From an uncultured Candidatus Saccharibacteria bacterium (lineage in GTDB: Bacteria; Patescibacteriota; Saccharimonadia; Saccharimonadales; Saccharimonadaceae), in assembly GCA_947165465.1 (NCBI GenBank), contig CAMVAM010000003.1, forward strand, positions 29,289 to 93,288: a stretch of 64,000 nucleotides of DNA. The letters run 5' to 3'. Under the pieces are notes generated by a model. The model was not told the origin of the DNA, searched no databases, and saw nothing but the letters and a program-made list of their open reading frames with translations. The translations under genes and the position numbers were made by a program. Shown here piece by piece: positions 11,028-63,742 of this stretch. Each line of letters opens with the position of its first letter. The stretch's first letter is position 1.

Positions 11028-11036
11028 ATTATACTA
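11028..11036 (-). promoter_or_regulatory. -10 box (TAGTATAAT), 6 nt upstream of the pheS ATG (11021)
   Basis: The minus strand reads TAGTATAAT-AATTAT-ATG. The box overlaps the stop codon of the upstream 982-aa gene. Confidence 0.5.
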
Positions 11037-13977
11037 CAAAATTGCGATTTCTAACATCGGCAAATGAGATAGAGTCCACCAGAATGGCTGCCGGCGCAAC
11101 TGCAACATAGTCATTCGTCTCAAAGATGATTCTATCCGGCATTTCCACCAACGGCTGACCGAATTGATAGCGGGTGGATGAATCGTAACTGGCAATGTAA
11201 TTACCATAATCAATGATATCAAGAACAGCCACTACGGTTTCCTTATCCAGACCCGAATACCTAGCCAGAACTCCTTCATATGAGTTATCAAGTGGATTTT
11301 GTTCATAGTATTCATCTAGAAATGCCGAAACGGCGGATTTTTCAATTAACCCCATTGACTCAGCTAATGACTGGTCTTCAATAAACCTTTGATAATTTTT
11401 AGCAGTTTCCCAATCCGGAGCGTTCAATGAAATCTGCTGATTGCCTGCTACACAAGACTCGCCACTAATATAGCCCATATGCGTCAGAACTTGTGTATTT
11501 TGGGCAATATCAATAATATCACCAACCGCCGGAATCGCACCGAGTGCAGCATTTGCAAACGAATCTCTGAAGGTCCTACCAGTATCAACATTAGCGAAAG
11601 TAGCAATCTGGCTAGAAATGTTTTGGTCTGCAAAGCCAAACGAAGATGCTCTATTATCACAGAACAAGATATATTTAGCAAGATCAGAACCGGCATTAAT
11701 CTTCACATTCCCCTCGCTCGTAGTTTCATCCAGGAAATTACCTTGTTCGTCAAGAATATTAATAAATTCGGCTGGATCTTCATTAATAGTTGAAACATCA
11801 GTAATCGAATATGGATTACAATATGAATCACCCACCGCGCCGATCGATGCTAGATAAGGACAAGTTTCGGCGAATTCATCTGGCGATGGTAAAGTTTCCG
11901 CAATAGTAGCCGCCTTTGCCGTCGGAGAAATAGCGACTATAGAAGAAGTCAACACCGAACTTGACGTTGATACTATTCCAAGTAGTGAGTTTGACGATAA
12001 GAATGACATTAATTGCGTCAACAGCGAACCCATAAACGTGTATTTAGAGGTCGCGTCGAACGGGCTTCGATTCATTCGTTCATACTTCGCGTTTTCGGCA
12101 ATTACTTCCTCTCGCGCCAACGCAAATTCAGTATACTTTTCTACATTTGCAAGTGAACCGCCATTTGCACGGTGCGTATTGCCCATATAAATATTTGCAC
12201 CAGACACTAAAGCATTACCAAGATCCTCGCCACCAATATTTTTAATAATATCCCTCGTAAACATTTCTACTACAACAGGTGTTAAAAGGCTTACGGCAAG
12301 GCTAATGGCGCCACCAAGAAGCGCATTTTTCACAAAATCAAGAAGTCCATCCGTAACAAGCGGTAGACAAGCAGCGGCGGAAACACCCAATGTGAAAATC
12401 GAACCAACTAAACCGCCAATACAGCCTGCAATTTCGGTTGCTTCAGCTATGCTTGAAACCGTATTTGCTGCTACCTTCGCAATTGCACATGTTTCAAATG
12501 CATCTCCTCCAGCCATCCAGTTTGCAACACTACTAAGAACGCCTTTCGTGTTGCTCGAGAAATTAAAACTCCTAATACTTGCATCATTAGTATCAGCACG
12601 TCTTCTTTCAAAAATACCAGCAATACCCTCGGCCTCCATTGCTGTACCATCGGTAGTTTCTTCAGTTACACTATTAAAAATCCCTCTATAAACCTTATGC
12701 GTATTCTCCGTTGGTTCGTTTAAAATCTGCGCAAAGTCATTAATTGGAGATTCCTCGGCATAGCCAATTTTTGCCTTATCAATCGCCTCCAAATATCCAG
12801 TCGTAAGATTGGCAATCTGAAGAATATTAGACGCATTCACCATCAAAGTCACTGCGCCTACAAAATTTGCAACGCCACAAGCAATATTTACAATCGTGTT
12901 GGCTTTTCCACTATATTTTTCGCCAAGAGTCTGAAGCTTCGATTTAACTTCGCCCTCAGTAATAGTAGCCCGATTCCAGCTTACGCCGCCTTCGAGTGTG
13001 TCGGTTTTATGAGTAAATTCATATTCACCGGAACCAACCATTCTCGGGCTTCCATCCGCATTATAGAGAGGTTTTCCGGTTATCGGATCGGTTTCTTGAA
13101 CCATTATTTCCCTAGTTTCAGCACCGGTCGTTCTACCACCTTTAATTTCTTCGGAGCCTTCGGACATCAAATCGATGGCAACCCTCCTACTACTGCCCGG
13201 ATCGGAAGAATCAACCTCCTCTAAGTATTTCTTAAACAAGTTTCTAGTAATCTTATTACTTCTTAGAAACTTAGTCGTAATCTCCCCAAACCAGTTTGAT
13301 ATTGCTCCTCGCCACGTCATTGACCCAGCATTATACTTATTAAAGAAATCCGGATCACTATAATATGTATTTTTAAAATCACTAGCAGTCACAGTTTTTA
13401 CTTCACCGGATGCAGTTGTATATTTTAGAACAGTACCAGCGCCAGACCCTTCAACTTCTATACCCTGTTTCGCAAGCCTATTCCGTTGTTTCGTAGAAAT
13501 ATTAAATGTATCACCACGAAAAAGCGTTCCTTTAATTGGATTTTTAACTTTACCACTCCCCATCTGCATCTTGAAAAAAGTATCCGAACGATTGTTCACG
13601 GAGACGTACATAGAGTTAAATAGCTCTTTAAAATTTTCAACTAAAGCAAACGGTTGGAATAATTGAGAAACAGAAAACAGCCCACCAAAACCAAGAATTA
13701 TGCCTAGAATTAATCCAATCGGGCCCTTACCTTTTAAGAAAGATTTTCCCTTTCCTTTGCCCTTATAAGATATTGACTCCCTACCAGAACCCGTATAATA
13801 TCCATTCGCAGCTTCTTCGTTTGCGCGATTTGCTTCGAGATTATCGCCAGTCTCAGCCGGCTTTTCGGAAGTAGCACCGGCCTCCGCCGCACGCAAACCC
13901 CTCGCGGCTTCATTATTAGCCGCGTCAATCTTAGGAATATCGCTTCTTCTCTGCGACGGTTTAGACCTTTCGTCCAT
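11029..13977 (-). CDS. Large (982 aa) polytopic membrane protein of unknown function
   Basis: Disordered charged N-terminus, a TM helix (GPIGLILGIILGFGGLF), and several further hydrophobic helices mid-protein (e.g. CIGGLVGSIFTLGVSAAACLPLV, LLGGAISLAVSLLTPVVV). I recognise no domain. Confidence 0.6.
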   Translation of the reverse strand: MDERSKPSQRRSDIPKIDAANNEAARGLRAAEAGATSEKPAETGDNLEANRANEEAANGYYTGSGRESISYKGKGKGKSFLKGKGPIGLILGIILGFGGLFSVSQLFQPFALVENFKELFNSMYVSVNNRSDTFFKMQMGSGKVKNPIKGTLFRGDTFNISTKQRNRLAKQGIEVEGSGAGTVLKYTTASGEVKTVTASDFKNTYYSDPDFFNKYNAGSMTWRGAISNWFGEITTKFLRSNKITRNLFKKYLEEVDSSDPGSSRRVAIDLMSEGSEEIKGGRTTGAETREIMVQETDPITGKPLYNADGSPRMVGSGEYEFTHKTDTLEGGVSWNRATITEGEVKSKLQTLGEKYSGKANTIVNIACGVANFVGAVTLMVNASNILQIANLTTGYLEAIDKAKIGYAEESPINDFAQILNEPTENTHKVYRGIFNSVTEETTDGTAMEAEGIAGIFERRRADTNDASIRSFNFSSNTKGVLSSVANWMAGGDAFETCAIAKVAANTVSSIAEATEIAGCIGGLVGSIFTLGVSAAACLPLVTDGLLDFVKNALLGGAISLAVSLLTPVVVEMFTRDIIKNIGGEDLGNALVSGANIYMGNTHRANGGSLANVEKYTEFALAREEVIAENAKYERMNRSPFDATSKYTFMGSLLTQLMSFLSSNSLLGIVSTSSSVLTSSIVAISPTAKAATIAETLPSPDEFAETCPYLASIGAVGDSYCNPYSITDVSTINEDPAEFINILDEQGNFLDETTSEGNVKINAGSDLAKYILFCDNRASSFGFADQNISSQIATFANVDTGRTFRDSFANAALGAIPAVGDIIDIAQNTQVLTHMGYISGESCVAGNQQISLNAPDWETAKNYQRFIEDQSLAESMGLIEKSAVSAFLDEYYEQNPLDNSYEGVLARYSGLDKETVVAVLDIIDYGNYIASYDSSTRYQFGQPLVEMPDRIIFETNDYVAVAPAAILVDSISFADVRNRNFVV

Positions 13978-38113: not shown

Positions 38114-38135
38114 AGTTTATCCTTATTGTACCAAT

Positions 38136-39598: not shown

Positions 39599-40802
39599 AT
39601 TCATTCTCCTTCTCGCTTTTAACACCTGCTGCACCCAACAGCAATCCAAATAGTATATACTCGAACTCTGATGAATAAGTGATAGCAGAAATATCTACAA
39701 CCAACATTATTGGTAACAAAACCTTTATTATTATATGGTAATTGCTACCTTTAGCTCCCCTATAAATTATAAAATATAGAGAATAATAAATGGCAAAACC
39801 TATTACACCAAGATTTGCGAGTAGCTCGGCATAGTTATTGTGCGAATATATTCCTTTCATGCTACTCTCATACCTAAAACCATCCTGACCGACGCCAATT
39901 ACTGGATTGTCCTTAAAGACTTGTATTGCTTCCCCTAATAGCCTTCTTCGAACTGCCGTAGATTGCATATTAGAACTAGAATCATCAGACGTCATTGTCT
40001 CAATAAAGCTATCAATCCTGTAACCTATAGAATTATATAACAAAGGCGTATTTTGGATTATCATATATCCACTCAGAATAAAAATCATCGTAATTACTAA
40101 TGTTTTAATTATCTTTACTATGTTTTTTGAGTTTAATAGTAATACAATTACAGATCCAATAACAAATATCAAAATGCTTTTCTTAGTTCCCATTAATAAA
40201 GCAATCGCCATAAAAGCTAAGATTAAACAGACGCAAGATATTTTTTTCCATTTCTTCATCTTGTGATTAAATATCAACTTCCAAAATAGAATTACCGAAG
40301 CATATGCCAGGGCGATTGCTGGAGTATTTGAGCCAAAAATAGTATCCTTTGAAAAACGCTCTCCATTCCCCCATTGCGACACCGGTACAGTCAAGATAAA
40401 CCTAGCTACCAAGACACCAGCAGCAGCAATAATATACTTAAATGTTCTGTCTACAGCGTTTTGTTTGCCATCACAATATATTATTATGACGATAGATAAT
40501 AAAACAACCTGTATAATAGATAAAATCGTCATAAAGGCCGTATTGTTTTCTTCCGATATCCACAATATGGATAGCGAGCTATAAAGGATAAATAGAAGAG
40601 CCCACAAAAAGTACTTGATGACAATAGTATTTTTTATTCTTTTATTCTTTATCACTATTGGAATTGCAAAGAATAAGGCTAATGCTTGTAATGATAGAAA
40701 AAGGATTTTTATGTCATAGAATGAAACACTAGCAACAACGGCTAATAGCACGGCAATATCAAACAATCGTATTTTATTTTTGCGCATAGCCACCCTTGTC
40801 AA
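39576..40802 (-). CDS. wzy: Wzy-type polysaccharide polymerase (O-antigen ligase-like fold)
   Basis: About 10 TMs and a Wzy_C-like loop (GIYSHNNYAELLANLGVIGFAIY). The start may be the ATG at 40787. Confidence 0.7.
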   Translation of the reverse strand: MTRVAMRKNKIRLFDIAVLLAVVASVSFYDIKILFLSLQALALFFAIPIVIKNKRIKNTIVIKYFLWALLFILYSSLSILWISEENNTAFMTILSIIQVVLLSIVIIIYCDGKQNAVDRTFKYIIAAAGVLVARFILTVPVSQWGNGERFSKDTIFGSNTPAIALAYASVILFWKLIFNHKMKKWKKISCVCLILAFMAIALLMGTKKSILIFVIGSVIVLLLNSKNIVKIIKTLVITMIFILSGYMIIQNTPLLYNSIGYRIDSFIETMTSDDSSSNMQSTAVRRRLLGEAIQVFKDNPVIGVGQDGFRYESSMKGIYSHNNYAELLANLGVIGFAIYYSLYFIIYRGAKGSNYHIIIKVLLPIMLVVDISAITYSSEFEYILFGLLLGAAGVKSEKENEYEIVKEN

Positions 40803-41919
40803 ATATGAAATTCAATATATTCTTTGCTCTTTCTTTAATAGTTATTTTTCTTGCCGTCTTCAAAGCCATCATTGACATATTTTCTCTTTTATTCTTATCA
40901 TTCTTTATACTTCTAATGGCGGTCTTAATATCTTGCAAATCATCCGGATTAATCAATATGGAATTATCGTTGTCTAAAATATCGTAATTAAACCGCTTAT
41001 CTGACGATATTACCGGTAACCCACACCCCATTGCCTCGATTATCGCGTTGCAACACCCTTCGTTTCTAGTCGGCAAGACGAATACATCGGATGTTGCATA
41101 AAAAATAGGTAAATCATCATGGTCAATCGGTGCATTCCATACGCAGTTCTTCGAAGTCGGTTTTAGCTTTCCTTTCCCTGCTGCAGCAAGTTTTACATCA
41201 CCACCAAAACTATCAACAGCCTTCTCCAACCGATCTATTCCCTTTCTTTCATCAAAACTCCCAACAAATGAAACAATAAAGTCTTTTTCATTAAAACCAA
41301 GTTTTTTTCTAGCTATTGTTTTATCGCTAGGCTTAAATAATTTTTCGTTAATCGCGTTCGGAAACACTTTTACGATTTTTGGATTCACATAATCAGAAAT
41401 CATCTCCTTATTCTGGGTCGACACAGCAATCACGCCAGTCAAAGAAGACAGCTCTCTTTTGACGGCCTTTTCTCCAAAATGCTTAATTGTCTGCAACGTC
41501 GCCTCACCATGCGCAAGAAAGGATGGTCTATTGTACTTCCTTCCTAATCTTGCAACGGCTATACCCGCTGGAGTAACAAAATGTGCATAAAAAACATCTA
41601 TATCACCCAAAGATTCATTGCTATCAATTAGCTTTTCAATAGCCTTTGTAAAACAATGGGTAGTTATTTTTGCGGGATTAAAAAACAAATAATCTCTCTG
41701 CCCTAGACCAAAATACCTTGGATAATACACCGTCACATTGTTTTCGGCCCTCTTTAGAGGTAACTTCTTATAGTTCTTATTGATGTTTGTAGGGACTGGA
41801 CTTATGACACTACATTTAATTCCTTGGCCAGCAATCTCGTCTACTAATTGTTTTAGAAAAATCGTAGTGTTTTTATCGACCTCATTCGGATACTTATTAG
41901 TAACAAAACAAATGTGCAT
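40774..41919 (-). CDS. Glycosyltransferase, GT4 family
   Basis: GT-B C-terminal signature (VFVLPTRNEGCCNAIIEAMGCGLPVISSD). Confidence 0.85.
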   Translation of the reverse strand: MHICFVTNKYPNEVDKNTTIFLKQLVDEIAGQGIKCSVISPVPTNINKNYKKLPLKRAENNVTVYYPRYFGLGQRDYLFFNPAKITTHCFTKAIEKLIDSNESLGDIDVFYAHFVTPAGIAVARLGRKYNRPSFLAHGEATLQTIKHFGEKAVKRELSSLTGVIAVSTQNKEMISDYVNPKIVKVFPNAINEKLFKPSDKTIARKKLGFNEKDFIVSFVGSFDERKGIDRLEKAVDSFGGDVKLAAAGKGKLKPTSKNCVWNAPIDHDDLPIFYATSDVFVLPTRNEGCCNAIIEAMGCGLPVISSDKRFNYDILDNDNSILINPDDLQDIKTAIRSIKNDKNKRENMSMMALKTARKITIKERAKNILNFIFDKGGYAQK

Positions 41920-41920
41920 T

Positions 41921-43297
41921 TTATTTCTCCGGCAATAATAGTTTTTGCCCCATTTCTAAATCGAACTCGTATGGAGTCACCTTATCAAAACCAGCCCCCA
42001 TAGTAAATGTTATTTCCCCAAAATAAATCTTTTCTTTAACTATATATAAATCTACTCTCGCGTGCGGGAATCCCTGCGAGAGAATACTCGCATAATTTAA
42101 TAATTTTTTTGTCACTTCCTTTGGCAGTGGCTGCATTGGTTCTCCATTTGGAAAATCCATCCTAACGCCCTTCAAAAATTTCCAATCTGTTGTGTATATG
42201 TTTTTTCTGTGATCCGTAAACCTATTAGTATCTACAGTAATGTATTCTGGCTTTCCACCAAAACACATAATTTTATAGTCCTCTGGCGATTCGCCTGACC
42301 CATTGTCTAGATACTCTTCAATTATTATTCGCGGTTTTTCCACACCATAAAACCACTCGCCATAACACTTAATAAATTTATACTTCAACCACTTTTTCAG
42401 TATTTTTTTAGTTTTCTTCCGATCGAGAAGCTTTGTATTTTTACAAATTATGTTTAATCCGCTACCATGCGTAACCTTTATCACGCATTTTTCAGGGAGT
42501 TTATTCCATGGAATACTCTCTGGGTCAAATCCTTGCCATATAAGCTTGTCTAATATTTCCGGACATCTCTCTTCAACATATTGTCTGACGGTATACTTAT
42601 CAACAAGCTTTGGCAGCAGCGGATTCTTATAATATAGTTTAATCCACTGTAGTTTTTCTGAATATGTTTTTGGATTCTTTAAATCTAACTTTTGACCATG
42701 TTTTAATCTAAACAGGATTTTCAATGCGGTCTTCGGGCTAATATCATACAAAAGATTTAACGGCGTAAGAATCGCACTTTTTGCTAAAGGCGTCAGCCCC
42801 TTTCTTTTCTTCTTTTTGCTATTTTCTTCAATATATTGATCCACTAGGCCAAAAACATCTGATTCCTTATTGTAGACCTTTACTATCGGTTTTTCTTTAA
42901 TCTTTTGAATTGACCGACCCAATTTTTCTATATCCCTTACTTCTAACAACAGCTTTTGTTCAGCAAGAACACCAGTGATTTGTGTTTGGTGGTCATCGAT
43001 ATGTTCGCCATATTTAGCTAATCTTGGCACGGCAATAACCTGTTTCTTCTTTTTTAATGCCCCAATAATCGCACCGGTCCCACCATGAGTAACAATCAAA
43101 TCCGCCTCATCTTGATACTTATTGAACTCTTTCTCGTCAAGAAAACGAGAATATTTATAATGTTTTGGTACATAATTCGAATCTGCTATCTGCGCAAATA
43201 CTTCATCCTTTATTACGCCACTCTCAATCAAAGAATCAACTTCTTTTAATAATCTATTAAACTGATATTCTCTTGAGCCAACACAAACGAAAATCAT
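41921..43297 (-). CDS. Fusion protein: Alg13/Cps14G-like glycosyltransferase C-terminal subunit + TupA-like ATP-grasp amidoligase
   Basis: Residues ~1-150 are MIFVCVGSREYQFNRLL...THGGTGAIIGAL...AVPRLAKYGEHIDDHQTQI (Glyco_tran_28_C/Alg13-like). Residues ~190-458 are LDLKNPKTYSEKLQWIKLYYKNPLL...VDKYTVRQYV...ARVDLYIVKEKIYFGEITFTMGAG (TupA-like). Confidence 0.8.
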   Translation of the reverse strand: MIFVCVGSREYQFNRLLKEVDSLIESGVIKDEVFAQIADSNYVPKHYKYSRFLDEKEFNKYQDEADLIVTHGGTGAIIGALKKKKQVIAVPRLAKYGEHIDDHQTQITGVLAEQKLLLEVRDIEKLGRSIQKIKEKPIVKVYNKESDVFGLVDQYIEENSKKKKRKGLTPLAKSAILTPLNLLYDISPKTALKILFRLKHGQKLDLKNPKTYSEKLQWIKLYYKNPLLPKLVDKYTVRQYVEERCPEILDKLIWQGFDPESIPWNKLPEKCVIKVTHGSGLNIICKNTKLLDRKKTKKILKKWLKYKFIKCYGEWFYGVEKPRIIIEEYLDNGSGESPEDYKIMCFGGKPEYITVDTNRFTDHRKNIYTTDWKFLKGVRMDFPNGEPMQPLPKEVTKKLLNYASILSQGFPHARVDLYIVKEKIYFGEITFTMGAGFDKVTPYEFDLEMGQKLLLPEK

Positions 43298-43758
43298 TAG
43301 TAAATACTCCCTCCATATATACCATCAGGATAATATTTAGCTAGCTGCTCCCATTGATAAATGAATAAATCTGCTTTACCATACATAAATTTACCAGCCC
43401 TAGTACAATCAGTGACTCTTGAAAATGTCTCAATAAATATTACTTTTTTCCTGAGAATCTTACAAAAAATACACATAGGAATAGCTACCATCGTACCAGT
43501 AGTCACAACAAAATCCGGTCGCTCTTTAGCAATAATATAAATCGTTTTAAAGCTGTTCAATAACGTCTTAATCGGGAATAGCCAATCTTTTAACCCAGAC
43601 TGCAATAAATGGTAATCTGCAATACTTTTATATTTCGTTGATTCTGTAACAACAAAAATATCATAATGCTCACCTAAAGGTTTTAGCATGCAAAGCTGCT
43701 GGTAATGACCACCAGACGACGAGATAAGACAAACTTTTGGCTTCTTTTGTCTACGCAT
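43297..43758 (-). CDS. Alg14/Cps14F-like membrane-anchoring glycosyltransferase subunit
   Basis: VCLISSSGGHYQQL...VVTTGTMVAIPMC pattern. 1-nt overlap with the Alg13-like fusion gene. Confidence 0.8.
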   Translation of the reverse strand: MRRQKKPKVCLISSSGGHYQQLCMLKPLGEHYDIFVVTESTKYKSIADYHLLQSGLKDWLFPIKTLLNSFKTIYIIAKERPDFVVTTGTMVAIPMCIFCKILRKKVIFIETFSRVTDCTRAGKFMYGKADLFIYQWEQLAKYYPDGIYGGSIY

Positions 43759-43872
43759 AATTCTTTTATAATTCTACACTTTTCCACATATTATTCTACC
43801 ACAAAACAGAGCAAAAGTAAAAAGCTTAAGTTTACTATTCCCCTAAAAAGCTATCCCCCCATAAACCTATAA

Positions 43873-43910
43873 AAATACCACCATATATTATATATAGTGG
43901 TATTTTACGT
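43873..43910 (-). terminator. Weak AT-rich hairpin + U-tract downstream of rpsH (possible partial terminator)
   Basis: aaataccac / catatattatatata / gtggtattt; on the minus strand it is followed by UUUUUAUA. The stem is AT-rich, so efficiency is uncertain. Confidence 0.35.
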
Positions 43911-43951
43911 AAAGCGGTCAAACTTTATTGTGTGCTCGCGCTAGCAACGAA

Positions 43952-44353
43952 TTACCAAACGCGAACGAGGATCTCGCCACCAAGACGATTCTTCTTGGCA
44001 TCACGACCGGTCATGAGACCCTTAGACGTGGATACGATTACCGTACCACGACCAGACTTCACTACCGGAAGTTCATCTGCGGACGAGTACACACGGCGAC
44101 CTGGCTTAGAAACCTTAGTGATTTCATTGATTTGTGCCAAAGTGCCTGGCTCGTTGATGACAATGTGGAGCATACCACGTGGTTTTGCATCTTCCACAGA
44201 GTATGAAGCGAGATAGCCGTTTTTCACTAAAATCTCGACGATAGCTAACTTCAATTTGGAAGTAGGAACGAGAATTTCAGTCTTGTTTGCCGAAATCGCA
44301 TTACGAATGCGGGTAAGTAAATCGGCGATTTGATCAGTTGTTTGTAATGACAT
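43952..44353 (-). CDS. rpsH: 30S ribosomal protein S8
   Basis: TDQIADLLTRIRNAISA...GGEILVRVW. Confidence 0.95.
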   Translation of the reverse strand: MSLQTTDQIADLLTRIRNAISANKTEILVPTSKLKLAIVEILVKNGYLASYSVEDAKPRGMLHIVINEPGTLAQINEITKVSKPGRRVYSSADELPVVKSGRGTVIVSTSKGLMTGRDAKKNRLGGEILVRVW

Positions 44354-49814: not shown

Positions 49815-50435
49815 TTATTCCTTTCCCTCCACCGTTACGATTCCTTTTTTCGGACCAGGCACAGCGCCTTTCAGACCGATTAGATTGTTGGCTGCATCGA
49901 TGTATGCAACAACAAGATTTTTGACAGTGACGGTGTCGTGGCCCATACGGCCTGGCATTCTTTTGCCTTTAAAAACCTTCTGTGGGTACATGGAACCAAT
50001 GGAACCGACTTTACGAATGTCGCCCTTAAAACCATGGGTATTGCGGGATTCGTTGAAGTTCCAGCGTTTAACGGTACCGGCATAGCCTTTACCTTTGCTT
50101 GTTCCGGTCACAGAAACTTTGTCACCAAGCTTGAAGCTCTCTACCGTGAGAGTATCACCAAGCTTTAGGCCTTCTGGGATTTCGTCAACACGAAATTCCT
50201 TTAGAACCTTAGGATTAATATTTTCACCGGCCTTCTTAACGTGGCCAGCAACCGACTTGCTCAGATTCTTACCCTGACCATAACCCACCTGCACAGCGTT
50301 ATAACCATCGGTTTCGACGGTTTTAATCTGAGTCACCGTGGCTGGGCCGGCTTGAAGAATAGTCACAGGAGTAACTACGCCATCTTCGCCGATGATCTGA
50401 GTCATACCAATTTTGGTGCCGAGAATGACTTGCAT
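49815..50435 (-). CDS. rplC: 50S ribosomal protein L3
   Basis: ILGTKIGMTQI...GTSKGKGYAGTVKRWNF... Confidence 0.95.
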   Translation of the reverse strand: MQVILGTKIGMTQIIGEDGVVTPVTILQAGPATVTQIKTVETDGYNAVQVGYGQGKNLSKSVAGHVKKAGENINPKVLKEFRVDEIPEGLKLGDTLTVESFKLGDKVSVTGTSKGKGYAGTVKRWNFNESRNTHGFKGDIRKVGSIGSMYPQKVFKGKRMPGRMGHDTVTVKNLVVAYIDAANNLIGLKGAVPGPKKGIVTVEGKE

Positions 50436-50588: not shown

Positions 50589-51107
50589 TTACTTATCTTC
50601 GTGTTTTGTAATCACGATGTCAATGTCTTTAATGGAACCTTTGGTGTCCATATTCACATCAAACGACTCGCCTTCGTTCGTCACAAACATAAAATACATG
50701 GTCGTACGCTTGGTATTCGTGTATTTGTAGCTATCTTTTTTGTAGCTGATTTGCTTCGCATTCGGGCAATTCTTTGAAACATACTGCGCAAGCGTATTTA
50801 CGAGCTTCGAATATTGGTCAGCCATGAGACCCATCTTCTTTAGCTGATAAATACCAATCATTAGAAGCTTGCCGTCTTTGTTTTCGGTTTCTTGCTTCAC
50901 TTTACGAATCGTTTCGCCGGAAACCGGGTCAACTTCGGTTGTAATTCTTTCATCGTCAGATGGCAGACCTGGCTTATCGTCACCGATTTTAATCACACCA
51001 AGCCCCATTAAAATGAGTAGAACAATAATCGCGACCACAAATAGCCCGCCAATTATCAGAATGACTCTTCCTCTTTTTGTACTGGTTAATAAATTCTCGT
51101 TATTCAT
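50589..51107 (-). CDS. N-terminally anchored membrane protein (172 aa), unknown function; paralogous region shared with the 245-aa protein at 52470..53207
   Basis: One TM (VILIIGGLFVVAIIVLLILMGLGV). The ectodomain contains KKDSYKYTNTKRTTMYFMFVTNEGESFDVNMD. Confidence 0.55.
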   Translation of the reverse strand: MNNENLLTSTKRGRVILIIGGLFVVAIIVLLILMGLGVIKIGDDKPGLPSDDERITTEVDPVSGETIRKVKQETENKDGKLLMIGIYQLKKMGLMADQYSKLVNTLAQYVSKNCPNAKQISYKKDSYKYTNTKRTTMYFMFVTNEGESFDVNMDTKGSIKDIDIVITKHEDK

Positions 51108-51108
51108 A

Positions 51109-52422
51109 CTATTTACTTATTGCGTAGGCGTTTGAAAGGCCTGATGTTACTTGATACGGATCGTAGCTAGCTACTGGGTCGTGGCTTCCGGCCGAATCAG
51201 CCACAATCCATTCACCAGAATCTGTAATGCCAACGATTGCTACATAGTGACCACCCTCGGTGAATGGCAAACCGCCCGCACCGACTGCGTGAACCATCTT
51301 ACCGGCTTTTAGTGCCGCATTAATCGTATCTACACTTGCATTGCCGAGGTTCTCGGCTTGGAGTCCATAATGTTGCGCGAGTACCCTAGATATTTCCCAG
51401 CTACTACCACACAAACTACCGTCACTACACCGTACATGCATACCCGCCTGACCGGCAATGTCTGCCGTCTCGGCCGGAGTTACGCTCATGCCCATCGTAG
51501 CGAGGATAGAAGCAAATGAAGTCGGACCACAGCCGGATTCGCAAATCGAGTTCATATCGCTACCATGAATACCTTGGTTACCATAGTTGAGGCTTCCCCA
51601 TTCCGGGTCGCACTGGTTGTATGAAACTACACCATCTACCGTAACAGGTGTGCCGGCACCGCCATAACCTTCTGGTTGGCAGTTCACATATTCACCACTA
51701 CCGCCACCAGTGCCATCGCCCGGCGCTAATTCTGGTAATTCGCTCGGATCAATGCCGAGGAATTGGTAAGCATAGCTAAGACGAGTGTTGTAATCTTCTG
51801 TCGCTGGGTTTTCGTAATTACGCCAAATACCATACACGGCATCTTCCATGCTCATCGCATTTAGCGCACTTGGGCCGTAGCCATATTGCGGAAGCTCCTC
51901 AATTGCCCAACCTACCTGCGCCTGCATCGAAGTCACTGGGTAGCCATGGCTATCTGCATAGTTCTGAAGGCCCTCGACGCGAGACCAGAAGTCCCACTGC
52001 ACTAAGCCGAAACCACCAGAATAAGTCTTGCTACCATTATCATAGGCGCGGAAATCTTCCGACACAATCGCACCACCTTGAAGAATACGTGGGTTCAGTC
52101 CGGACTCGGCATACATGTTGCCAATAATCGCTGCCGCTGACTGCTCGGAATAGCCATTTGCCATCAAAGTACCCATAATTGCACTCGCGTTATCGTCTGC
52201 ATTAATATAAACCGTCGACGGATCTACTACTTGGTAGTTTTCCGAACCGGCATCCACACAAGCATTTGAACCATACGGATCGTAGAACAAAATGTTGTTC
52301 TGCGCGAACTTTTCGAGCATTTCTTCAGGCATCGTTGCATGAGTCACCGAAGCGGCCGGCCCCACAACAGCCACCACGAAAGTCATAGCCACAGCAAGAA
52401 CAGCTTTGATTCTACTTTTCAT
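51109..52422 (-). CDS. Secreted bifunctional cell-wall hydrolase: lysozyme-like (phage-tail-lysozyme-type) N-domain + C39-like cysteine peptidase C-domain
   Basis: Signal peptide from MKSRIKAVLAVAMTFVVAVVGPAASVTHA. AAAIIGNMYAESGLNP...GFGLVQW is lysozyme-like. SGCGPTSFASILATMG...GGHYVAIVG is Peptidase_C39_2-like. I prefer the ATG at 52422 over the TTG at 52458. Confidence 0.7.
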   Translation of the reverse strand: MKSRIKAVLAVAMTFVVAVVGPAASVTHATMPEEMLEKFAQNNILFYDPYGSNACVDAGSENYQVVDPSTVYINADDNASAIMGTLMANGYSEQSAAAIIGNMYAESGLNPRILQGGAIVSEDFRAYDNGSKTYSGGFGLVQWDFWSRVEGLQNYADSHGYPVTSMQAQVGWAIEELPQYGYGPSALNAMSMEDAVYGIWRNYENPATEDYNTRLSYAYQFLGIDPSELPELAPGDGTGGGSGEYVNCQPEGYGGAGTPVTVDGVVSYNQCDPEWGSLNYGNQGIHGSDMNSICESGCGPTSFASILATMGMSVTPAETADIAGQAGMHVRCSDGSLCGSSWEISRVLAQHYGLQAENLGNASVDTINAALKAGKMVHAVGAGGLPFTEGGHYVAIVGITDSGEWIVADSAGSHDPVASYDPYQVTSGLSNAYAISK

Positions 52423-52469
52423 TAATATAAGTATAATATTTTTTCTAAAAGATATCAAGCATAATGCTT

Positions 52470-53207
52470 TTATTCTTGCTCAGGAAAATCGTTGTATTGG
52501 TCAGTCATGTCGTAATAATTAACAGTCGCATTTCCATTAAACTCATAGCCCTTTTGTTGAAGCACATCCATTGCCGTTTCCCTTAGGCCGCCAGTGTAAT
52601 CTACAATCGAAAATAACAGTGAACCGTCTTCAAGCACCGCCCCGCGAATCTCAAAATGAATTGCTCTTCTTGATTCAAAATCAAATGCATCTACTACTAT
52701 TGGAAAGTCTTTTAATCCTCTTACTTCGTCAAAAGTATTTGCCATCTCCGTGTTGTCATACATGCTTTCGCAGTGACTCTCCGGATATTTACTTTCCTTT
52801 GTAGTAGCACAGCGAATAATAATTCCGTCTGATACCTCCACCTTTTTGGACCAATCCATCACTACTTTATATGTTTGCTTATAGTCATCCACATCGATTA
52901 AGAAATTCGCCGTCGTTATATCCTGCTCGGTGCTAGTGCCATAAGAATCTTCTCGAATCGTCGCGCTGATTCTGTCGTCTTCTTTCGCTCCGGCCTTTGC
53001 GACAAGCAGATTTTTTAATTGTAGTCCAAGTCCTTCCACTTGATCTTTTGGCATCGATTCCGGTGCACCCGAAATCGTCACGTGACTTTTTTGCCATGAC
53101 TGGCTCTGCATTATCGACATAATCACGGCGATTATTACTACCAGCATCGTCACGCCGGCACTGATGGTTCCTATTTTTGGTAATGAAAGCGGTTGTTTTT
53201 CGAACAT
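52470..53207 (-). CDS. N-terminally anchored membrane protein (245 aa), unknown function
   Basis: One TM (ISAGVTMLVVIIAVIMSIM). The ectodomain contains IREDSYGTSTEQDITTANFLIDVDDYKQTYKVVMD. Abuts the stop codon of the upstream hydrolase gene. Confidence 0.55.
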   Translation of the reverse strand: MFEKQPLSLPKIGTISAGVTMLVVIIAVIMSIMQSQSWQKSHVTISGAPESMPKDQVEGLGLQLKNLLVAKAGAKEDDRISATIREDSYGTSTEQDITTANFLIDVDDYKQTYKVVMDWSKKVEVSDGIIIRCATTKESKYPESHCESMYDNTEMANTFDEVRGLKDFPIVVDAFDFESRRAIHFEIRGAVLEDGSLLFSIVDYTGGLRETAMDVLQQKGYEFNGNATVNYYDMTDQYNDFPEQE

Positions 53208-54542
53208 TTAGATTCCTTTCAATACATTATCCGTATATGCGTATGTCGGCCCGTACGGGCTGGATGAATTCGTGTATTCAGACAGGCTATAAACCTGTGC
53301 GCGTGGGCGATAGCTTCTGGCGCCCTTACCGGAGCCACAGCTCGCCTCACCAATGATAATCTGATCTTTTTCTTTGTTGATACCGAGCACAATGCCGGTG
53401 TGATTTGCCCAACCACCCGCCGAGCCGCTCGTCGGCCCGGAACTCATCACGGCATATAGTTTCGGAATCTTGCCACCGTCTTTTAGTTGCGGATGCATCG
53501 CTAGGTTCTGCTTTACCGCCTGCGAACCTTGAATTAAAGACACGCCACTCGGACCAAGCGTTGTGTATCTGTTTAAGAACCATTTCGTAAAGGCCGAGCA
53601 GTTATTTAGTGACCCACTTGGACAGCCCACATCTTCAATCTTGACTCCTTCAAATGTCACAAGCCCATGTTGCATTTTGTCCGCTTCTCTCGCATACGCT
53701 TCCATAAATGACTGTGCCTGAGCTAAGTCCATGCCACCATTTATGAGTTTCCCTTCCGCCGCCGCTGTGTTTTCTTCGGCCTTAGTTTCGGTAGTTTTAT
53801 TCACCACGCAAGACGAAATTTCATCAAGCCCGACGCCATCGCCGCCGTCACCACCACCGGCCGCGTTTCTGGCTGCATTTTCATACCATTCCGGATGTTC
53901 ATCCGCGAGTTCCTTTGATGATTTCCAACCCTCTTCCTCAGAAACTCTTTCAATCATCAAAATTAAGGAGCTCAGCTTCGAAACATAATTCGGATCGGTC
54001 GCGTATCCCGCATTTTTAATCGCCTGCGCGTAGGCATACGGATTCGTCACCGTATCGCCCTGGAATACGCCATGGTTACGATAGGTTGGTGTATTTACGA
54101 TGTTTTTATAATAACCTTCCCAGCCTGCTTCCGGCGTTTCGTACGAGAATGCATTATCCGGATTACTATCAAATGCGCCAATCCCAAAGAAATTATTTCT
54201 TTCCCTCGCAAAATACGAAGTCCCCGACGCCGATTCCAAAATTCCCTGCGCCATCACCGTTTCCCAAGGGATACCATAGTTAATACTGTGCATTACTGCA
54301 ATATCATGATAAGTCTTAATAAATCCTACCTGCGTGCCATCCGGCTCCCCACTAAGGACTCCGCCCTCACCTGAACCAATACAATTTCCGTACGGGTCAT
54401 AAAACAGAATATTATTATCCGCATAAATCCCCAGTTCCTCTTCCGTCATCCGGCTTTTCGCGCTAGCCGGAGCCACCAAAAACGCCGCTCCGATAAAGAG
54501 AAATAGCACTAAAAGTAGTTTACGCTTCATCACTTTGAGCAT
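53208..54542 (-). CDS. Secreted bifunctional cell-wall hydrolase: N-acetylglucosaminidase (GH73-like) + C-terminal CHAP domain
   Basis: Signal peptide. AQGILESASGTSYFARERNNFFGIGAFD is glucosaminidase-like. NNCSAFTKWFLNRY...GHTGIVLGI is CHAP Cys/His. Overlaps the prfB 3' end by 11-23 nt depending on the start chosen. Confidence 0.78.
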   Translation of the reverse strand: MLKVMKRKLLLVLFLFIGAAFLVAPASAKSRMTEEELGIYADNNILFYDPYGNCIGSGEGGVLSGEPDGTQVGFIKTYHDIAVMHSINYGIPWETVMAQGILESASGTSYFARERNNFFGIGAFDSNPDNAFSYETPEAGWEGYYKNIVNTPTYRNHGVFQGDTVTNPYAYAQAIKNAGYATDPNYVSKLSSLILMIERVSEEEGWKSSKELADEHPEWYENAARNAAGGGDGGDGVGLDEISSCVVNKTTETKAEENTAAAEGKLINGGMDLAQAQSFMEAYAREADKMQHGLVTFEGVKIEDVGCPSGSLNNCSAFTKWFLNRYTTLGPSGVSLIQGSQAVKQNLAMHPQLKDGGKIPKLYAVMSSGPTSGSAGGWANHTGIVLGINKEKDQIIIGEASCGSGKGARSYRPRAQVYSLSEYTNSSSPYGPTYAYTDNVLKGI

Positions 54543-55614
54543 AACAATTTTCTAAGAAATTATCAATAAACCCATCAATCTCGCCGTCTAGCACCGCATC
54601 CGGATCGGTCTCCTCATACCCGGTGCGCGTATCTTTTACTAACTTATACGGTTGAAGTACATAATTTCGAATCTGCTGCCCCCATCCGGCCGACTCGCCG
54701 GCACGAAGCTTATCGATGGATTCCGCATGCTGTTCGAGTTGCATCTGTACCAACTTCCCACGGAGAATTTCCATCGCCTTTTCCTTGTTTTGGAGCTGCG
54801 AACGTTCGTTTTGAATCGCCACTACAGTATTGGTCGGAATATGCGTAATGCGGACTGCCGAATTAGTCGTATTCACACTCTGCCCACCATGCCCGCCGGA
54901 ATGATAGACATCAATCCTGAGGTCCTTTTCATCGATTTTTACGTCTGTATCCGCCTTAATTACCGGGAGAACTTCCACTAGCGCAAACGAAGTCTGGCGA
55001 AGATTATTTGCATTAAATGGCGAAAGTCGAACTAACCTATGCACACCATGCTCAGATTTAAGTAGACCATATACATTTGTACCATTTACTTCATAAACTC
55101 CGGTTTTAATCCCGGCTTCTTCACCGGCCACCCGCTCCAGAGTCGAGACTTTAAACCCTTTTCGTTCAAAGAATCTTAGATACATGCGCTCGAGCATCCC
55201 GGACCAATCCATCGCTTCCGTCCCACCGGCTCCCGCGGTGATGCGAATGATTGCATCTTTGTCGTCATATGGCCCGTTAAATCGTAAGGCTTTCTTCAGC
55301 TCTTCGAAATTCTTTTCCATTGCCTCGACTTGCCCCGCCATCTCGTCTTTTAGCGAGTCGTCGCTCATCTCGAATAGTTCTTTTAAATCTTCAATTTGAG
55401 TTTTAAGAAGTCGCCACGGCTGCGTTTCGTCATTAATCCGCGCAAGTTCCTGGTTTTTCGAAGTCGCTTCCTCCACATTATTCCAAATTTCCGGCACCGC
55501 CACTTCTTCTTCCAGCTTGGCAAGTTTCGCCAGTTTCTCATCAATTTTCAGTCGTTCGTACGCTACCAAAAAATCATCTTCAAGTTCCGTCAACCGCTTC
55601 TGTAATTCCTGCAT
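54520..55614 (-). CDS. prfB: Peptide chain release factor 2, single uninterrupted ORF (no programmed frameshift)
   Basis: SPF tripeptide (RLSPFNANN) and GGQ (SGGHGGQSVNTT). The N-terminal domain is contiguous in one frame. Confidence 0.93.
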   Translation of the reverse strand: MQELQKRLTELEDDFLVAYERLKIDEKLAKLAKLEEEVAVPEIWNNVEEATSKNQELARINDETQPWRLLKTQIEDLKELFEMSDDSLKDEMAGQVEAMEKNFEELKKALRFNGPYDDKDAIIRITAGAGGTEAMDWSGMLERMYLRFFERKGFKVSTLERVAGEEAGIKTGVYEVNGTNVYGLLKSEHGVHRLVRLSPFNANNLRQTSFALVEVLPVIKADTDVKIDEKDLRIDVYHSGGHGGQSVNTTNSAVRITHIPTNTVVAIQNERSQLQNKEKAMEILRGKLVQMQLEQHAESIDKLRAGESAGWGQQIRNYVLQPYKLVKDTRTGYEETDPDAVLDGEIDGFIDNFLENCYAQSDEA

Positions 55615-61487: not shown

Positions 61488-62710
61488 AAATTGCATTATT
61501 AGGTTACGGCAAAGAAGGTAAAGCCGCCGAAAAGTATTTCAAAGAGAAATTTAATGCCGATTTCGAGATTTTCGAGAACTTCACTCGCGAAGAAATCGAA
61601 AAAAAGGATTTTTCCGGCTTCGATTTAGTGCTTCGTAGTCCTTCCGTGCCACCGCTTCATCTTAAAAACGAATCCAGTCTCACCCGCTATTTCTTTGATC
61701 ACTGCCCTTGCCCGATTATCGGCGTCACCGCTACTAAGGGTAAAGGCACCACTTGTTCGTTTATTAAATCACTGCTCGACGCCATGGGTGAAGATGCATT
61801 TATTGTCGGGAACATCGGCACTCCGGCCATCGAATCCCTCGATTCCCTTAAAGAAACCTCAGTTGTAGTTTACGAAATGTCCAGCTTCCAGCTCTGGGAC
61901 CTCGAAAAATCTCCACACGTCGCCGTCGTTGGCACCATCGAACCGGATCACTTAAACGTCCATAATGGTTTTGATGATTATGTGAACGCCAAAGCCAACA
62001 TCTGCCGCCATCAATCCACAGACGATTATTTAGTTTACTATTCCAAAAACAACGACACTAAAAGAATCGCGGATAATAGCAAAGCAAAGAAGCTTACTTA
62101 CCCATTTGATTTACCAAAAGATGTCGAAGAAGCCATCGTTATCCCTGGTGAGCACAACAAAATGAACGCCATGGCCGCTATCGCCGCCGTCGCTTGTTAC
62201 AAAAATATATCACCAGACGAATATTTAAGCACATATAAAACCGAGATTATTAATGGTCTTAAGAATTTCAAAGGCCTCCCACATCGTCTCGAATACGTCC
62301 GCGAATTAAATGGTGTTAAATATTATGACGATAATTTCTCTACCAATCCAGCTTCTACCAGGGTTGCGATTGATGCTTTCCCGAATAATTCCGTCGTCGC
62401 CATTATCGGTGGTCGCGACAAAACCGGAAACGTCGATCTCCCGGAAATCTACGAAGTTATTTCTGCGAAGAACGTGAAGAAAGTCGTCCTAATGGGCGAA
62501 TCTGGCCACGAAATCTTTAGCAGATGGCAAGATGACCGCTTTATCCTGGTCGAATCTCTTGAAGAAGCCGTGAACACCGCGAAATCAGAAGCCGAAAAAC
62601 TAGCTAGCGCCATCGTTCTGATGTCCCCCTCCGCTGCCAGCTTTGATATGTTTGAAAACGTCTATGATCGAGGCGCTAAATATCAAGCTTTAATTAAAAG
62701 CCTCTCTTAA
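61484..62710 (+). CDS. murD: UDP-N-acetylmuramoyl-L-alanine--D-glutamate ligase
   Basis: Short N-terminal Rossmann domain, P-loop GVTATKGKGTT, GLPHRLEYV. ATGA overlap with dus. Confidence 0.85.
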   Translation: MKIALLGYGKEGKAAEKYFKEKFNADFEIFENFTREEIEKKDFSGFDLVLRSPSVPPLHLKNESSLTRYFFDHCPCPIIGVTATKGKGTTCSFIKSLLDAMGEDAFIVGNIGTPAIESLDSLKETSVVVYEMSSFQLWDLEKSPHVAVVGTIEPDHLNVHNGFDDYVNAKANICRHQSTDDYLVYYSKNNDTKRIADNSKAKKLTYPFDLPKDVEEAIVIPGEHNKMNAMAAIAAVACYKNISPDEYLSTYKTEIINGLKNFKGLPHRLEYVRELNGVKYYDDNFSTNPASTRVAIDAFPNNSVVAIIGGRDKTGNVDLPEIYEVISAKNVKKVVLMGESGHEIFSRWQDDRFILVESLEEAVNTAKSEAEKLASAIVLMSPSAASFDMFENVYDRGAKYQALIKSLS

Positions 62711-63742
62711 TTCTTCCTCAGTCACCGGTTTTAATGTTTCCGGATTCACCACCGGTGTTACTACCGTACCGGTTCCCGGCGTTTCGATAGTATTCTTAAA
62801 CGGGTTTTCTTTTTCCGGTTCGGTCGGCGTGCCTTCGCCACCTTCTGAACCTTTATCTTTTTTGCCCTTACCAAGCTTCTTAATTAATAAGAAGATTAGG
62901 CCAAGCAGAATCAATGCACCTTCAGCGATTGCGATAATCATCCAAAGTGGCGATTCTTCTTCTTTTATGACCGGATTGTTATTTTCACATTTCGGGCAAG
63001 ACGGACAACTCGCTCTCAAGATTTCTACAACATAATCCTGTCTCGTACCGTCTTCGGCCGTCACAATCACTATGAATTTATTAGTGCCGATTTTAAGAAT
63101 CTGTTTCCCCACCGAACCGGTCACGGTCGCCTTGCTATCGGTCGTAGTTACATCAATATTAACTTCCGATACTTCGTTTGCAACTTCAATCTTATAGCTT
63201 TCGCCTTCAAGTTTGGCTTCTTCGTCACCAACTTTTACGGTCTTTACACTCGCATCACTACTTTTCTTCTCCGGTTCTGGAGTTGGAGTTGGAGTCGGTG
63301 TTGGGGTAGGTGTAGGAGTTGGAGTCGGTGTTGGGTCCGTGTGCGGTACCGGTACCGGCGCCGGATCTTTAACCGTTACTTGTATATTGCGTGTTACATC
63401 TAGATGCTCATCATCGTAGGTCGTCATATCCGTAGAATATACAGTAATGACTGTATTACCAGCCACTAAACCATTCACCGTAACAGTGACGCTACTATTG
63501 TCTAGGAATTCTTTTGCGGTCGAAACTGATGCCACGCCCGAGTTAGCTACGGAGATGTCTACTCGGCCGGCTGAATTCGTCGCGGTCACTTTAAAAGTCG
63601 CAGATTTGCCCTTCTCGATAGTGATCGAACCGGTTGATATGGTCATATCACCGGTCGCAAACGCTAACCCAGAAGGAAGAAGAATTGAAAAAGATAATAT
63701 AAAAGTAAGTAAAATTTTTTTGAGGTTCTTTACGGTCGCCAT
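62690..63742 (-). CDS. Surface protein: signal peptide, Ig-like (Big-type) domain, (TP)n linker, cadherin-like beta-sandwich domain, TM and cytoplasmic tail
   Basis: MATVKNLKKILLTFILSFSILLPSGLAFA, then TDPTPTPTPTPTPTPTPTPTPEPE, then SDASVKTVKVGDEE...NKFIVIVTAEDGTRQDYVVEILR, then WMIIAIAEGALILLGLIFLLI. The 3' end overlaps the murD 3' end by 21 nt (convergent). Confidence 0.65.
   Translation of the reverse strand: MATVKNLKKILLTFILSFSILLPSGLAFATGDMTISTGSITIEKGKSATFKVTATNSAGRVDISVANSGVASVSTAKEFLDNSSVTVTVNGLVAGNTVITVYSTDMTTYDDEHLDVTRNIQVTVKDPAPVPVPHTDPTPTPTPTPTPTPTPTPTPEPEKKSSDASVKTVKVGDEEAKLEGESYKIEVANEVSEVNIDVTTTDSKATVTGSVGKQILKIGTNKFIVIVTAEDGTRQDYVVEILRASCPSCPKCENNNPVIKEEESPLWMIIAIAEGALILLGLIFLLIKKLGKGKKDKGSEGGEGTPTEPEKENPFKNTIETPGTGTVVTPVVNPETLKPVTEEELREAFN
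63273..63337. repeat. Hexanucleotide-type coding repeat encoding the Thr-Pro linker
   Basis: ggttctggagttggagttggagtcggtgttggggtaggtgtaggagttggagtcggtgttgggtc. Confidence 0.8.

Follow-up and report, generated by a model that had tools for sequence, protein, structure and literature searches.

Why do two peptidoglycan hydrolases with different catalytic domains, encoded on the same strand within a few kilobases, carry almost the same short peptide near their N-terminus, and why is each followed by a gene for a small membrane-anchored protein? The question is raised by a stretch of 64,000 nucleotides from a Saccharibacterium (TM7), called here the window. A first inspection of this DNA by itself, the sequence-only reading, described the locus as a duplicated two-gene cassette and saw in it either effectors with their immunity proteins or a regulated autolysin system. 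We find that the shared peptide is a tag present on secreted hydrolases of about ten catalytic families, and that the gene next to a tagged one encodes, with a single exception, a single-pass membrane protein, mostly of one family. We tentatively read each cassette as one copy of a Saccharibacteria-wide two-gene module, in which the partner tethers or regulates the hydrolase via the tag; our confidence in this reading is a little less than even.

The two cassettes

All five open reading frames (ORFs) described by the sequence-only reading, prfB and the four genes of the cassettes, lie on the minus strand where it had placed them. We call the hydrolases hydA and hydB, and the proteins encoded after them partner A and partner B; C1 and C2 are two cysteines of the hydrolases, D1 and D2 two domains of the partners. 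The features of the cassettes are the following, with lengths in amino acids (aa) and TM for a transmembrane helix.

53208..54542, minus strand: hydA, 444 aa, Sec-exported bifunctional peptidoglycan hydrolase with signal peptide, tag, GH73 glucosaminidase and CHAP-like Cys peptidase
54381..54458, minus strand: hydA tag and C1, residues 29-54, KSRMTEEELGIYADNNILFYDPYGNC, at the mature N-terminus
53958..54299, minus strand: hydA GH73 glucosaminidase domain, residues 82-195, PF01832
53808..53810, minus strand: hydA Cys245 (C2), in the Gly-rich linker ahead of the C-terminal module, 100% conserved in orthologues
53346..53606, minus strand: hydA CHAP-like Cys-peptidase domain, residues 313-399, with Cys315 as proposed nucleophile
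52470..53207, minus strand: partner A, 245 aa, bitopic membrane protein with TM 12-37, D1 43-133, Cys133/Cys146 and D2 170-233
51109..52422, minus strand: hydB, 437 aa from the ATG at 52422, Sec-exported bifunctional hydrolase with signal peptide and tag
Within hydB, minus strand: phage-tail-type lysozyme, residues 77-221, and C39-like Cys peptidase, residues 265-411, both from Pfam
52258..52335, minus strand: hydB tag and C1, residues 30-55, TMPEEMLEKFAQNNILFYDPYGSNAC
50589..51107, minus strand: partner B, 172 aa, bitopic membrane protein with TM 11-35, a low-confidence linker, and a helix + 4-strand domain at 96-168

The catalytic domains that had been assigned to the two hydrolases score above the Pfam cut-offs, except for the CHAP domain of hydA. 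In this protein, Glucosaminidase (PF01832) reaches 85.2 bits against a cut-off of 30.2 (E 7e-24), and the nearest solved relatives in the PDB are FlgJ/LytB-type domains. The GH73 region contains the segment AQGILESASG, in whose ILES the catalytic Glu would lie. The C-terminus gives 16.5 bits against CHAP (PF05257), below the cut-off of 26 (E 0.012); CHAP hits are precomputed for several hydA homologues, Cys315 is 100% conserved, and a His was recognised by inspection in NHTGIV. For hydB, Phage_lysozyme2 (PF18013) scores 89.4 bits against a cut-off of 28.2 (E 3e-25), with phi29 gp13 as closest solved relative (E 1.3e-5), and Peptidase_C39_2 (PF13529) scores 60.7 bits against 24 (E 3e-16).

The ATG start gives hydB a canonical signal peptide, as in L058 and L088 (L numbers designate the loci fetched for comparison), and the signal-peptidase site of hydA, between ASA and K, is predicted by inspection and by the family consensus. 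Among 323 homologues of hydA, those with a named source all come from Candidatus Saccharibacteria.

A tag at the mature N-terminus

The motif NNILFYDPYG stands exactly where it had been reported, at 54387-54416 and 52270-52299, and these are its only two copies in the six frames of the window. The near-identical segment noticed after the signal peptide is borne out as well: the two hydrolases are alike only over their first 59 residues or so (39% identity, E 4e-9). Because seven of the ten codons of the motif differ synonymously between hydA and hydB, it is the peptide that selection has kept, and not DNA that was copied recently.

The motif is the core of a longer element, a tag of 19 residues at the mature N-terminus, with the pattern L-[ST]-E-x-x-L-x-[FM]-[YF]-[AS]-Q-N-[NG]-I-[LY]-[FY]-Y-[DN]-P. 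In the consensus of 135 distinct tags, taken from the signal-peptidase site (A before the cut, L after it), this pattern is extended by x-G, and the distance from the tag to the site is fixed. A Cys, C1, follows the Pro of the tag by 1-13 residues in all 135, and by 3-7 residues in 94% of them. The strict pattern is present in 86 of the 120 listed homologues of hydA and a looser one in nearly all, just past the signal peptide, and the domains at their C-termini vary.

A scan of species-representative genomes with the motif back-translated into DNA gave at least 119 loci; the counts derived from it are lower bounds. Secreted Saccharibacterial proteins of 280-960 aa account for at least about 46 matches, with the motif 35-57 residues from the start, or up to about 76 where the ORF call begins upstream, and one match (L043) belongs to a metagenome-assembled genome labelled Nomurabacteria. 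The Pfam families found on 20 annotated tagged proteins are Glucosaminidase, Phage_lysozyme2, Amidase_2, NlpC/P60, CHAP, C39_2, VanY, M15_4 and GDSL; M23 also occurs among the tagged homologues of hydA, for a total of about ten catalytic families. The idea of a conserved N-terminal tag on unrelated muralytic enzymes, proposed from two proteins, thus extends much further than these two.

The sequence-only reading had been wary of the motif turning up in unrelated contexts. It does turn up in one: the octapeptide NNILFYDP is found in cardiolipin-synthase-like proteins of the phospholipase D (PLD) type (L001, L003, L004 and at least about 60 more loci) from Planctomycetes, Verrucomicrobia and Proteobacteria. 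There it lies about 55 residues from the C-terminus, past the HKD motif and directly after GSANMDRRSF(D/E)LNYE. Since these copies are C-terminal, cytoplasmic and in an unrelated context, we consider them a coincidence, and rejected the octapeptide as a piece of a generic domain. Phage lysins were likewise rejected as carriers, a scan of viral contigs returning only unrelated giant-virus ORFs.

The tag is outside the models of Pfam and NCBIfam. The lipobox, YSIRK and prepilin motifs do not match it: the tag follows an AXA-type cleavage site, and its Cys comes 20-30 residues into the mature protein. Our literature search found no mention of the tag motif or of the partner family.

The partner genes

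Beyond the window, too, secreted proteins with the motif are found at many loci with a single-pass membrane protein next to them, as a search along the lines proposed by the sequence-only reading shows. Counting complete tagged loci for which downstream sequence is contained in the fetched locus, the next gene starts -44 to +14 nucleotides from the stop of the hydrolase and encodes 170-310 aa with one N-terminal TM helix; L039 is the sole exception. From this spacing, the hydrolase and partner genes are predicted to be translationally coupled. The association also holds in reverse where tested: upstream of P0220 is a tagged GDSL hydrolase, and upstream of P0191 a hydA-like C-terminus. In the region of the window cassettes, a scan for promoters and terminators gave hits at chance level only, and no terminator between the cassette genes. 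One sigma-70-like site, TTGATA-17-TATACT (10 of 12 matches, 52430-52458, minus strand), lies just upstream of the ATG of hydB and may be an internal promoter, promoter-like sites being regionally at chance frequency.

Partner A and 28 of the other partners, 29 out of 34, form one BLAST-linked family across enzyme types, and an exhaustive HMMER search brings this family to 159 representative clusters, all of about 150-300 aa. Its signature consists of IR..S, FxVDID and QTYxV..W, a pair of invariant Cys, and LP ahead of a second domain. Of 36 partners, 31 have a detectable D2, as we call this second domain, with D1 or a PEGA-like domain in front of it; D1-only proteins of 148-188 aa also exist. 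Partner A has the TM helix, the D1 signature (E 2.6e-37), the invariant Cys pair, the LP motif and D2 (E 2.3e-9). Its AlphaFold2 (AF2) model, with a predicted local distance difference test (pLDDT) of 91.3, consists of the TM helix, D1 as a helix with an antiparallel sheet, and D2 with the order beta-beta-beta-alpha-beta. That both partners are membrane-anchored, as had been proposed, agrees with their AF2 models, which give the N-terminal TM helices listed above. The partner is a predicted N-in/C-out single-pass membrane protein of a family unannotated so far: partner A has no match in Pfam, NCBIfam, PHROG or the PDB. Neither partner model has a significant Foldseek match in the PDB or among viral models (BFVD), and a profile search of PDB sequences was likewise empty. 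The weak fold hits of both are to NTF2/cystatin-like proteins with curved sheets, at E 0.1-1, with best values of 0.014 and 0.32.

Is partner B a member of the same family? Its relatives number only 14, and none is less than 57% identical. It has the TM helix and is devoid of D2 (E 1.1), of the Cys pair and of the LP motif; its similarity to D1 is weak (E 0.012-0.036). The region that the sequence-only reading took to be shared by the two partners is not significant: BLASTP against partner A gives E 2.4, with no significant similarity to the family. Aligned to the family profile, partner B falls co-linearly on D1 over 81 columns (hhalign E 0.086, probability below 1%), with a score equalled in three of 100 column shuffles (empirical P about 0.03), which leaves the paralogy of the two partners unproven. 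The AF2 model has a pLDDT of 64 overall and of 71-83 for residues 86-170, and the predicted order of a helix and four strands at residues 96-168 matches that of D1 in partner A. At best, partner B is a diverged and truncated relative of the family, probably one with D1 only, although this is unproven.

A single partner family goes with catalytic folds that are unrelated and have only the tag in common, and the most economical explanation is that the partner binds the tag. We infer this binding, and a common docking signal, as the sequence-only reading suggested, would be the best reading of the tag.

Two loci show other arrangements of the module. In L128 (3001-4866), the glucosaminidase homologue P0079, of 621 aa, has a GtrA-like multi-pass domain before a signal-anchor, then the tag FYNENGILYYDPQGGDDC and GH73, and is still followed by a PEGA + D2 partner. 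In L132 (8241-11701), a housekeeping locus near Mur ligases and GroEL, a tagged hydrolase of 643 aa stands between two partner-family genes, PEGA + D2 upstream and D1 + D2 downstream.

Invariant cysteines

In hydA, cysteines 54, 245, 307, 315 and 402 are all 98-100% conserved, and across tagged proteins a second Cys is found in a Gly/Ser/Asp-rich linker just ahead of the C-terminal module. The number of Cys is odd in 84% of the scanned tagged proteins, a few of which are truncated at a contig end; it is odd in seven of seven proteins with one detected Cys-peptidase domain, and even in three of three with Zn-peptidase domains only. This parity fits a situation in which all non-catalytic Cys are disulfide-bonded intramolecularly. 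In the tagged proteins with three Cys, C1-C2 is therefore the only possible disulfide. Such counts suggest that the tag Cys (Cys54 of hydA) pairs with C2 (Cys245) in an intramolecular disulfide. We rejected a disulfide that would join the tag Cys to the partner, the Cys of the partner family being two invariant ones, with counts mostly even (2 or 4), and those of partner B numbering 0-1 and non-conserved. We also rejected a single homologous domain for all C-terminal modules: the one BLAST cluster that contains them arises via multidomain proteins (L101).

If C1 and C2 are bonded, the tag might act in cis, as an N-terminal strand or helix, or as a propeptide-like lid held on the C-terminal peptidase, and the partner would then do other work, for example envelope scaffolding, or that of a foldase like the lipase-specific Lif. 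The invariant Cys after the tag, the conserved one in the linker, the parity that tracks the catalytic Cys and the three-Cys proteins all agree with this, as does the perfect tag of hydB beside a partner without D2. However, the C-terminal modules belong to differing families (CHAP, NlpC/P60, C39-like, VanY, M15), with those of hydA and hydB linked only through a multidomain protein, and a tag packed on such varied surfaces would be expected to change along with them, whereas hardly any variation is seen in it. No part of these proteins is in fact more conserved than the tag, which argues for a common ligand acting in trans, and a tag that works in cis seems to us rather unlikely.

Link with type IV secretion

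Some tagged hydrolases are neighbours of a type IV secretion system (T4SS). The genes of L133 encode, in this order, VirB6/TrbL, PrgI, a TraC-like protein, VirB4, a CHAP protein of 991 aa, a D1-only protein of 176 aa, a tagged hydrolase, with tag variant FFNNNGIYFYNPNDVGC, and its D1 + D2 partner of 231 aa, after which come recF-dnaN-dnaA; parts of the same arrangement are seen in L130, L131 and L135. Judging from gene order, the predicted Saccharibacterial T4SS operon ends with a tagged hydrolase and its partner. The hydA and hydB of the window, contrary to their paralogues in L131, L133 and L135, are not within a T4SS gene cluster.

Among the counterparts of these genes in S. epibionticum ML1, SEML1_0010 is PrgI, SEML1_0008 is VirB4, and SEML1_0007 has 1113 aa with a DD-peptidase fold (PMC10633639, supplements). 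SEML1_0006, of 643 aa, combines GH73, lysozyme and Cys proteinase, and SEML1_0005 is an exported PEGA + OmpATb-N-like protein of 211 aa; all five are scored as required for growth (same supplements). Growth scoring by transposon sequencing (Tn-seq) gives GD/ES/ES for all of SEML1_0004 to SEML1_0010 and ES/ES/ES for SEML1_0011 (same supplements). Hydrolases downstream of virB4 have been presented as possible VirB1 substitutes, and a VirB8 homologue was not found in Saccharibacteria; the tag and the partner are not described in that work (PMC12102498).

These operons bring up another possibility, that the tag brings hydrolases, once exported by Sec, to the T4SS on its extracytoplasmic side, for action at the epibiont-host junction or delivery through it, with the partners as accessory components of the machine, the helix and curved sheet of D1 being possibly NTF2/VirB8-like. 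The position of a tagged hydrolase and its partner at the end of the operon in L130, L131, L133, L135 and apparently S. epibionticum, the D1-only protein inside the operon, the reported absence of VirB8 (PMC12102498) and the weak NTF2/cystatin-like hits of the partners would all follow from it. Against it, both window cassettes, L132 and many others are far from T4SS genes. No Foldseek match to VirB8, TraM, PrgL or an NTF2 protein was found at E<=1e-3, the best value being 0.014, and no sequence match either; moreover, SEML1_0005 is annotated as PEGA + OmpATb-N-like, with no D1. We find such a routing signal unlikely; it competes with our reading all the same, as the tag acting in cis does.

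One large ORF of the window recalls this system.

11029..13977, minus strand: 982-aa ORF, homologue of a large T4SS-associated protein, outside the cassettes

Its tblastn matches are the 853-aa protein of L131 (E 5e-43) and the 991-aa protein of L133 (E 1.6e-17). Elsewhere, its homologues lie between virB4 and the tagged hydrolase; in the window it immediately precedes pheS/pheT, and its surroundings contain no T4SS gene. We count it as a distant relation of the system and not as a part of the cassettes.

A wider conjecture joins both lines of evidence. The tag would be a new extracytoplasmic signal for sorting and docking, put by Saccharibacteria on all their wall-cleaving enzymes, and D2 receptors, with D1 as a possible stand-in for VirB8, would place the enzymes at the T4SS/host contact, where they would open both the epibiont's own wall and that of its host for feeding. 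We regard this conjecture as rather improbable.

History of the locus

The cassettes are bounded by two housekeeping genes.

54520..55614, minus strand: prfB (release factor RF2), upstream context gene whose 3' end overlaps the start of hydA by 23 nucleotides
49815..50435, minus strand: rplC, downstream boundary of the locus

The neighbourhood is of the same nature, with prfB, a UvrD-like helicase and ribosomal proteins. The order prfB-hydA-partnerA-rplC is found in L051, L074 and L098, where rplC directly adjoins partner A, and the synteny of prfB and hydA is kept in L027, L051, L058, L069, L088, L092, L098 and L110. Only in L058, L088, L092 and the window is partner A separated from rplC by the pair hydB-partnerB. 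Gene order thus points to prfB-hydA-partnerA-rplC as the ancestral arrangement, and to hydB-partnerB as a clade-specific insertion. Since the insertion is limited to this subclade, the two cassettes are not a tandem duplication, and to call the cassette duplicated, as the sequence-only reading did, is misleading, the more so as the catalytic domains are unrelated.

Between the window and L092, identity is 94% for prfB, 80% for hydA, 40% for partner A and 99.5% for rplC. More generally, partner A comes in at least three very different versions (L069/L092, L027/L051/L110), 76%, 44-48% and 40% identical to the window copy, in genomes whose hydA is 79-87% and whose rplC is 98-100% identical to that of the window. 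Such a pattern suggests either that alleles have been replaced or that a protein exposed at the surface is diverging very rapidly.

Divergence of this kind is what one would look for if the tagged hydrolases were effectors that attack the wall of the host bacterium, and the anchored protein the cognate immunity protein at the surface of the producer. Several facts point this way: effector-immunity pairs typically have this order of genes, with a small coupled one after that of the enzyme; the partners evolve faster than the enzymes, closely related genomes holding partner A at 40% identity against 80% for hydA; the catalytic domains resemble phage lysins; and the bacterium lives on other bacteria, as an epibiont (PMC10633639). 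However, known immunity proteins are specific to an active site, and here the D2 family stands beside about ten unrelated catalytic folds, among glycosidases, amidases, Cys-peptidases, Zn-peptidases and an esterase. The partner is therefore not an inhibitor specific to one active site, and classical effector-immunity becomes unlikely. The ratio of nonsynonymous to synonymous substitution rates (omega) does not help it either: all four cassette genes of the window are under purifying selection, with omega 0.04-0.13 (0.04-0.08 for hydA) and no sign of positive selection on the partners, synonymous divergence (dS) being saturated. In S. epibionticum, the hydrolase SEML1_0006 is itself required for growth, and not just its partner, and the hydA cassette holds a conserved housekeeping position by prfB and rplC. 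Taken together, we judge this explanation to be decidedly unlikely.

A possible mechanism

Assuming that the partner does act through the tag, the module could work as follows. The first gene would provide a Sec-exported enzyme with two peptidoglycan-cleaving domains. Removal of the signal peptide would expose the nearly invariant tag, first a helix-like L-S/T-E-x-x-L-x-F-F/Y-A-Q, then N-N-I-L-F-Y-D-P, with a Cys soon after. The product of the second gene, a single-pass partner built from D2 and in some cases also D1 or a PEGA-like domain, would capture the hydrolase by this tag with its extracytoplasmic domains, and keep it at the membrane surface of the epibiont, so that its action would be local and controlled instead of leading to diffusion or autolysis. 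The C1-C2 disulfide would loop out the first catalytic domain and place the tag beside the second. The copy in the T4SS operon plausibly does a VirB1-like opening of the wall; those of the window would be extra paralogous modules, probably for remodelling the epibiont wall, possibly for the host wall at the contact site. Of the two alternatives of the sequence-only reading, the regulated autolysin comes nearer to this scheme than effector-immunity does.

Several observations weigh against tethering through the tag. The partners evolve at two to four times the rate of the hydrolases, and the tag hardly varies at all; a strict lock-and-key pair is hard to reconcile with this, unless it is D2 that is conserved. 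Partner B has no D2 though the tag of hydB is perfect, and no partner domain is universal; L039 shows no partner, and that of L095 is unrelated to the family. A disulfide stapling the tag to the C-terminal module of its own protein could allow the tag to act in cis. Finally, the S. epibionticum counterparts are known from annotation, the presence of the tag in SEML1_0006 being presumed, and the essentiality of SEML1_0005 and SEML1_0006 could come from polar effects within the operon.

Other features of the window

Apart from the cassettes, positions 36000-44000, on the minus strand just downstream of rpsH/rplE, have a GC content of 33-35%, against 42-47% elsewhere in the window. This stretch encodes a glycosyltransferase-28/TupA-like ATP-grasp fusion (41921-43297) and several ORFs without a family, and looks like an acquired surface-glycan island. 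The 982-aa ORF discussed above (11029-13977, minus strand) and a 1320-aa ORF (17582-21544, minus strand) have no Pfam family. A possible surface adhesin, of 350 aa and with a Cadherin-like beta-sandwich domain, is encoded at 62690-63742 (minus strand), adjoining a Mur-ligase gene.

Significance and comparison with known systems

The module bears on how Saccharibacteria and other Patescibacteria breach and remodel walls at the interface between epibiont and host without lysing themselves. Its tag, the Cys that always follows and the partner gene, one for each hydrolase, are handles that can be mutated in the genetically tractable strains S. epibionticum and TM7x. It also points to a gap in annotation: tag and partner family are outside Pfam, NCBIfam and PHROGs, and with two simple sequence models several genes could be labelled in each Saccharibacterial genome. 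If the binding is true, murein hydrolases would have a compact system that resembles dockerin and cohesin; if the disulfide is true, domains are looped out in secreted enzymes of a monoderm, which would be an unusual architecture. The enzymes themselves are ordinary members of known hydrolase families, and bifunctional hydrolases near T4SS genes are already known. Three things seem not to have been described before: an N-terminal tag common to these enzymes and always followed by a Cys, a family of anchored partners dedicated to them, and the strict pairing of tag and partner across enzyme types.

The closest known enzymes are the VirB1-like bifunctional hydrolases (TraG of pIP501, PrgK of pCF10, CwlT of ICEBs1), which have the same combination of a glycan-strand cleaver and a Cys peptidase of CHAP or NlpC/P60 type, and to which the tagged member downstream of virB4 in Saccharibacterial T4SS operons can be likened. 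However, the window copies lie outside a T4SS locus and have GH73 or phage-tail lysozyme in place of SLT; they have a cleavable Sec signal and the tag in place of an N-terminal TM anchor; a dedicated gene for an anchored partner follows; and the module has been multiplied with many other catalytic domains. The partners, for their part, recall the VirB8-like bitopic proteins (VirB8, TraM, PrgL, TcpC) by their N-terminal TM helix and an ectodomain of helix and curved sheet, and by the presence of family members in the T4SS operon (the 176-aa and 231-aa genes of L133), but there is no significant Foldseek or sequence match.

The pairs of type VI and type VII secretion systems (Tae-Tai, Tge-Tgi) also have an enzyme gene followed by a gene for a small, faster-evolving, extracytoplasmic partner. 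Their immunity proteins are specific to a fold, whereas one partner family here serves unrelated folds, export is by Sec, and the S. epibionticum hydrolase is required for growth. Lif and LipA provide an analogy, with an anchored extracytoplasmic helper encoded directly downstream of a secreted enzyme; Lif is all-alpha and wraps one enzyme family, while the partners here are alpha/beta two-domain proteins that go with many.

In the cellulosome, dockerin and cohesin are analogous in that a small conserved module on diverse secreted enzymes meets an anchored receptor. They differ in having no relation of sequence or fold to the tag and partner, for which binding is proposed; the tag is N-terminal, of some 19 residues, and the receptor is encoded one-to-one beside the enzyme, with no multi-cohesin scaffoldin. 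The logic is that of FtsEX-PcsB/CwlO/RipC, SpdC-SagB and ActH-LytH, in which a cognate membrane protein directs a wall hydrolase and makes it safe. Those membrane proteins are polytopic or form complexes of the ATP-binding cassette (ABC) type, each specific to one enzyme; here, with no homology to them, a single-pass family goes with about ten enzyme families, and the handle is apparently a short N-terminal tag.

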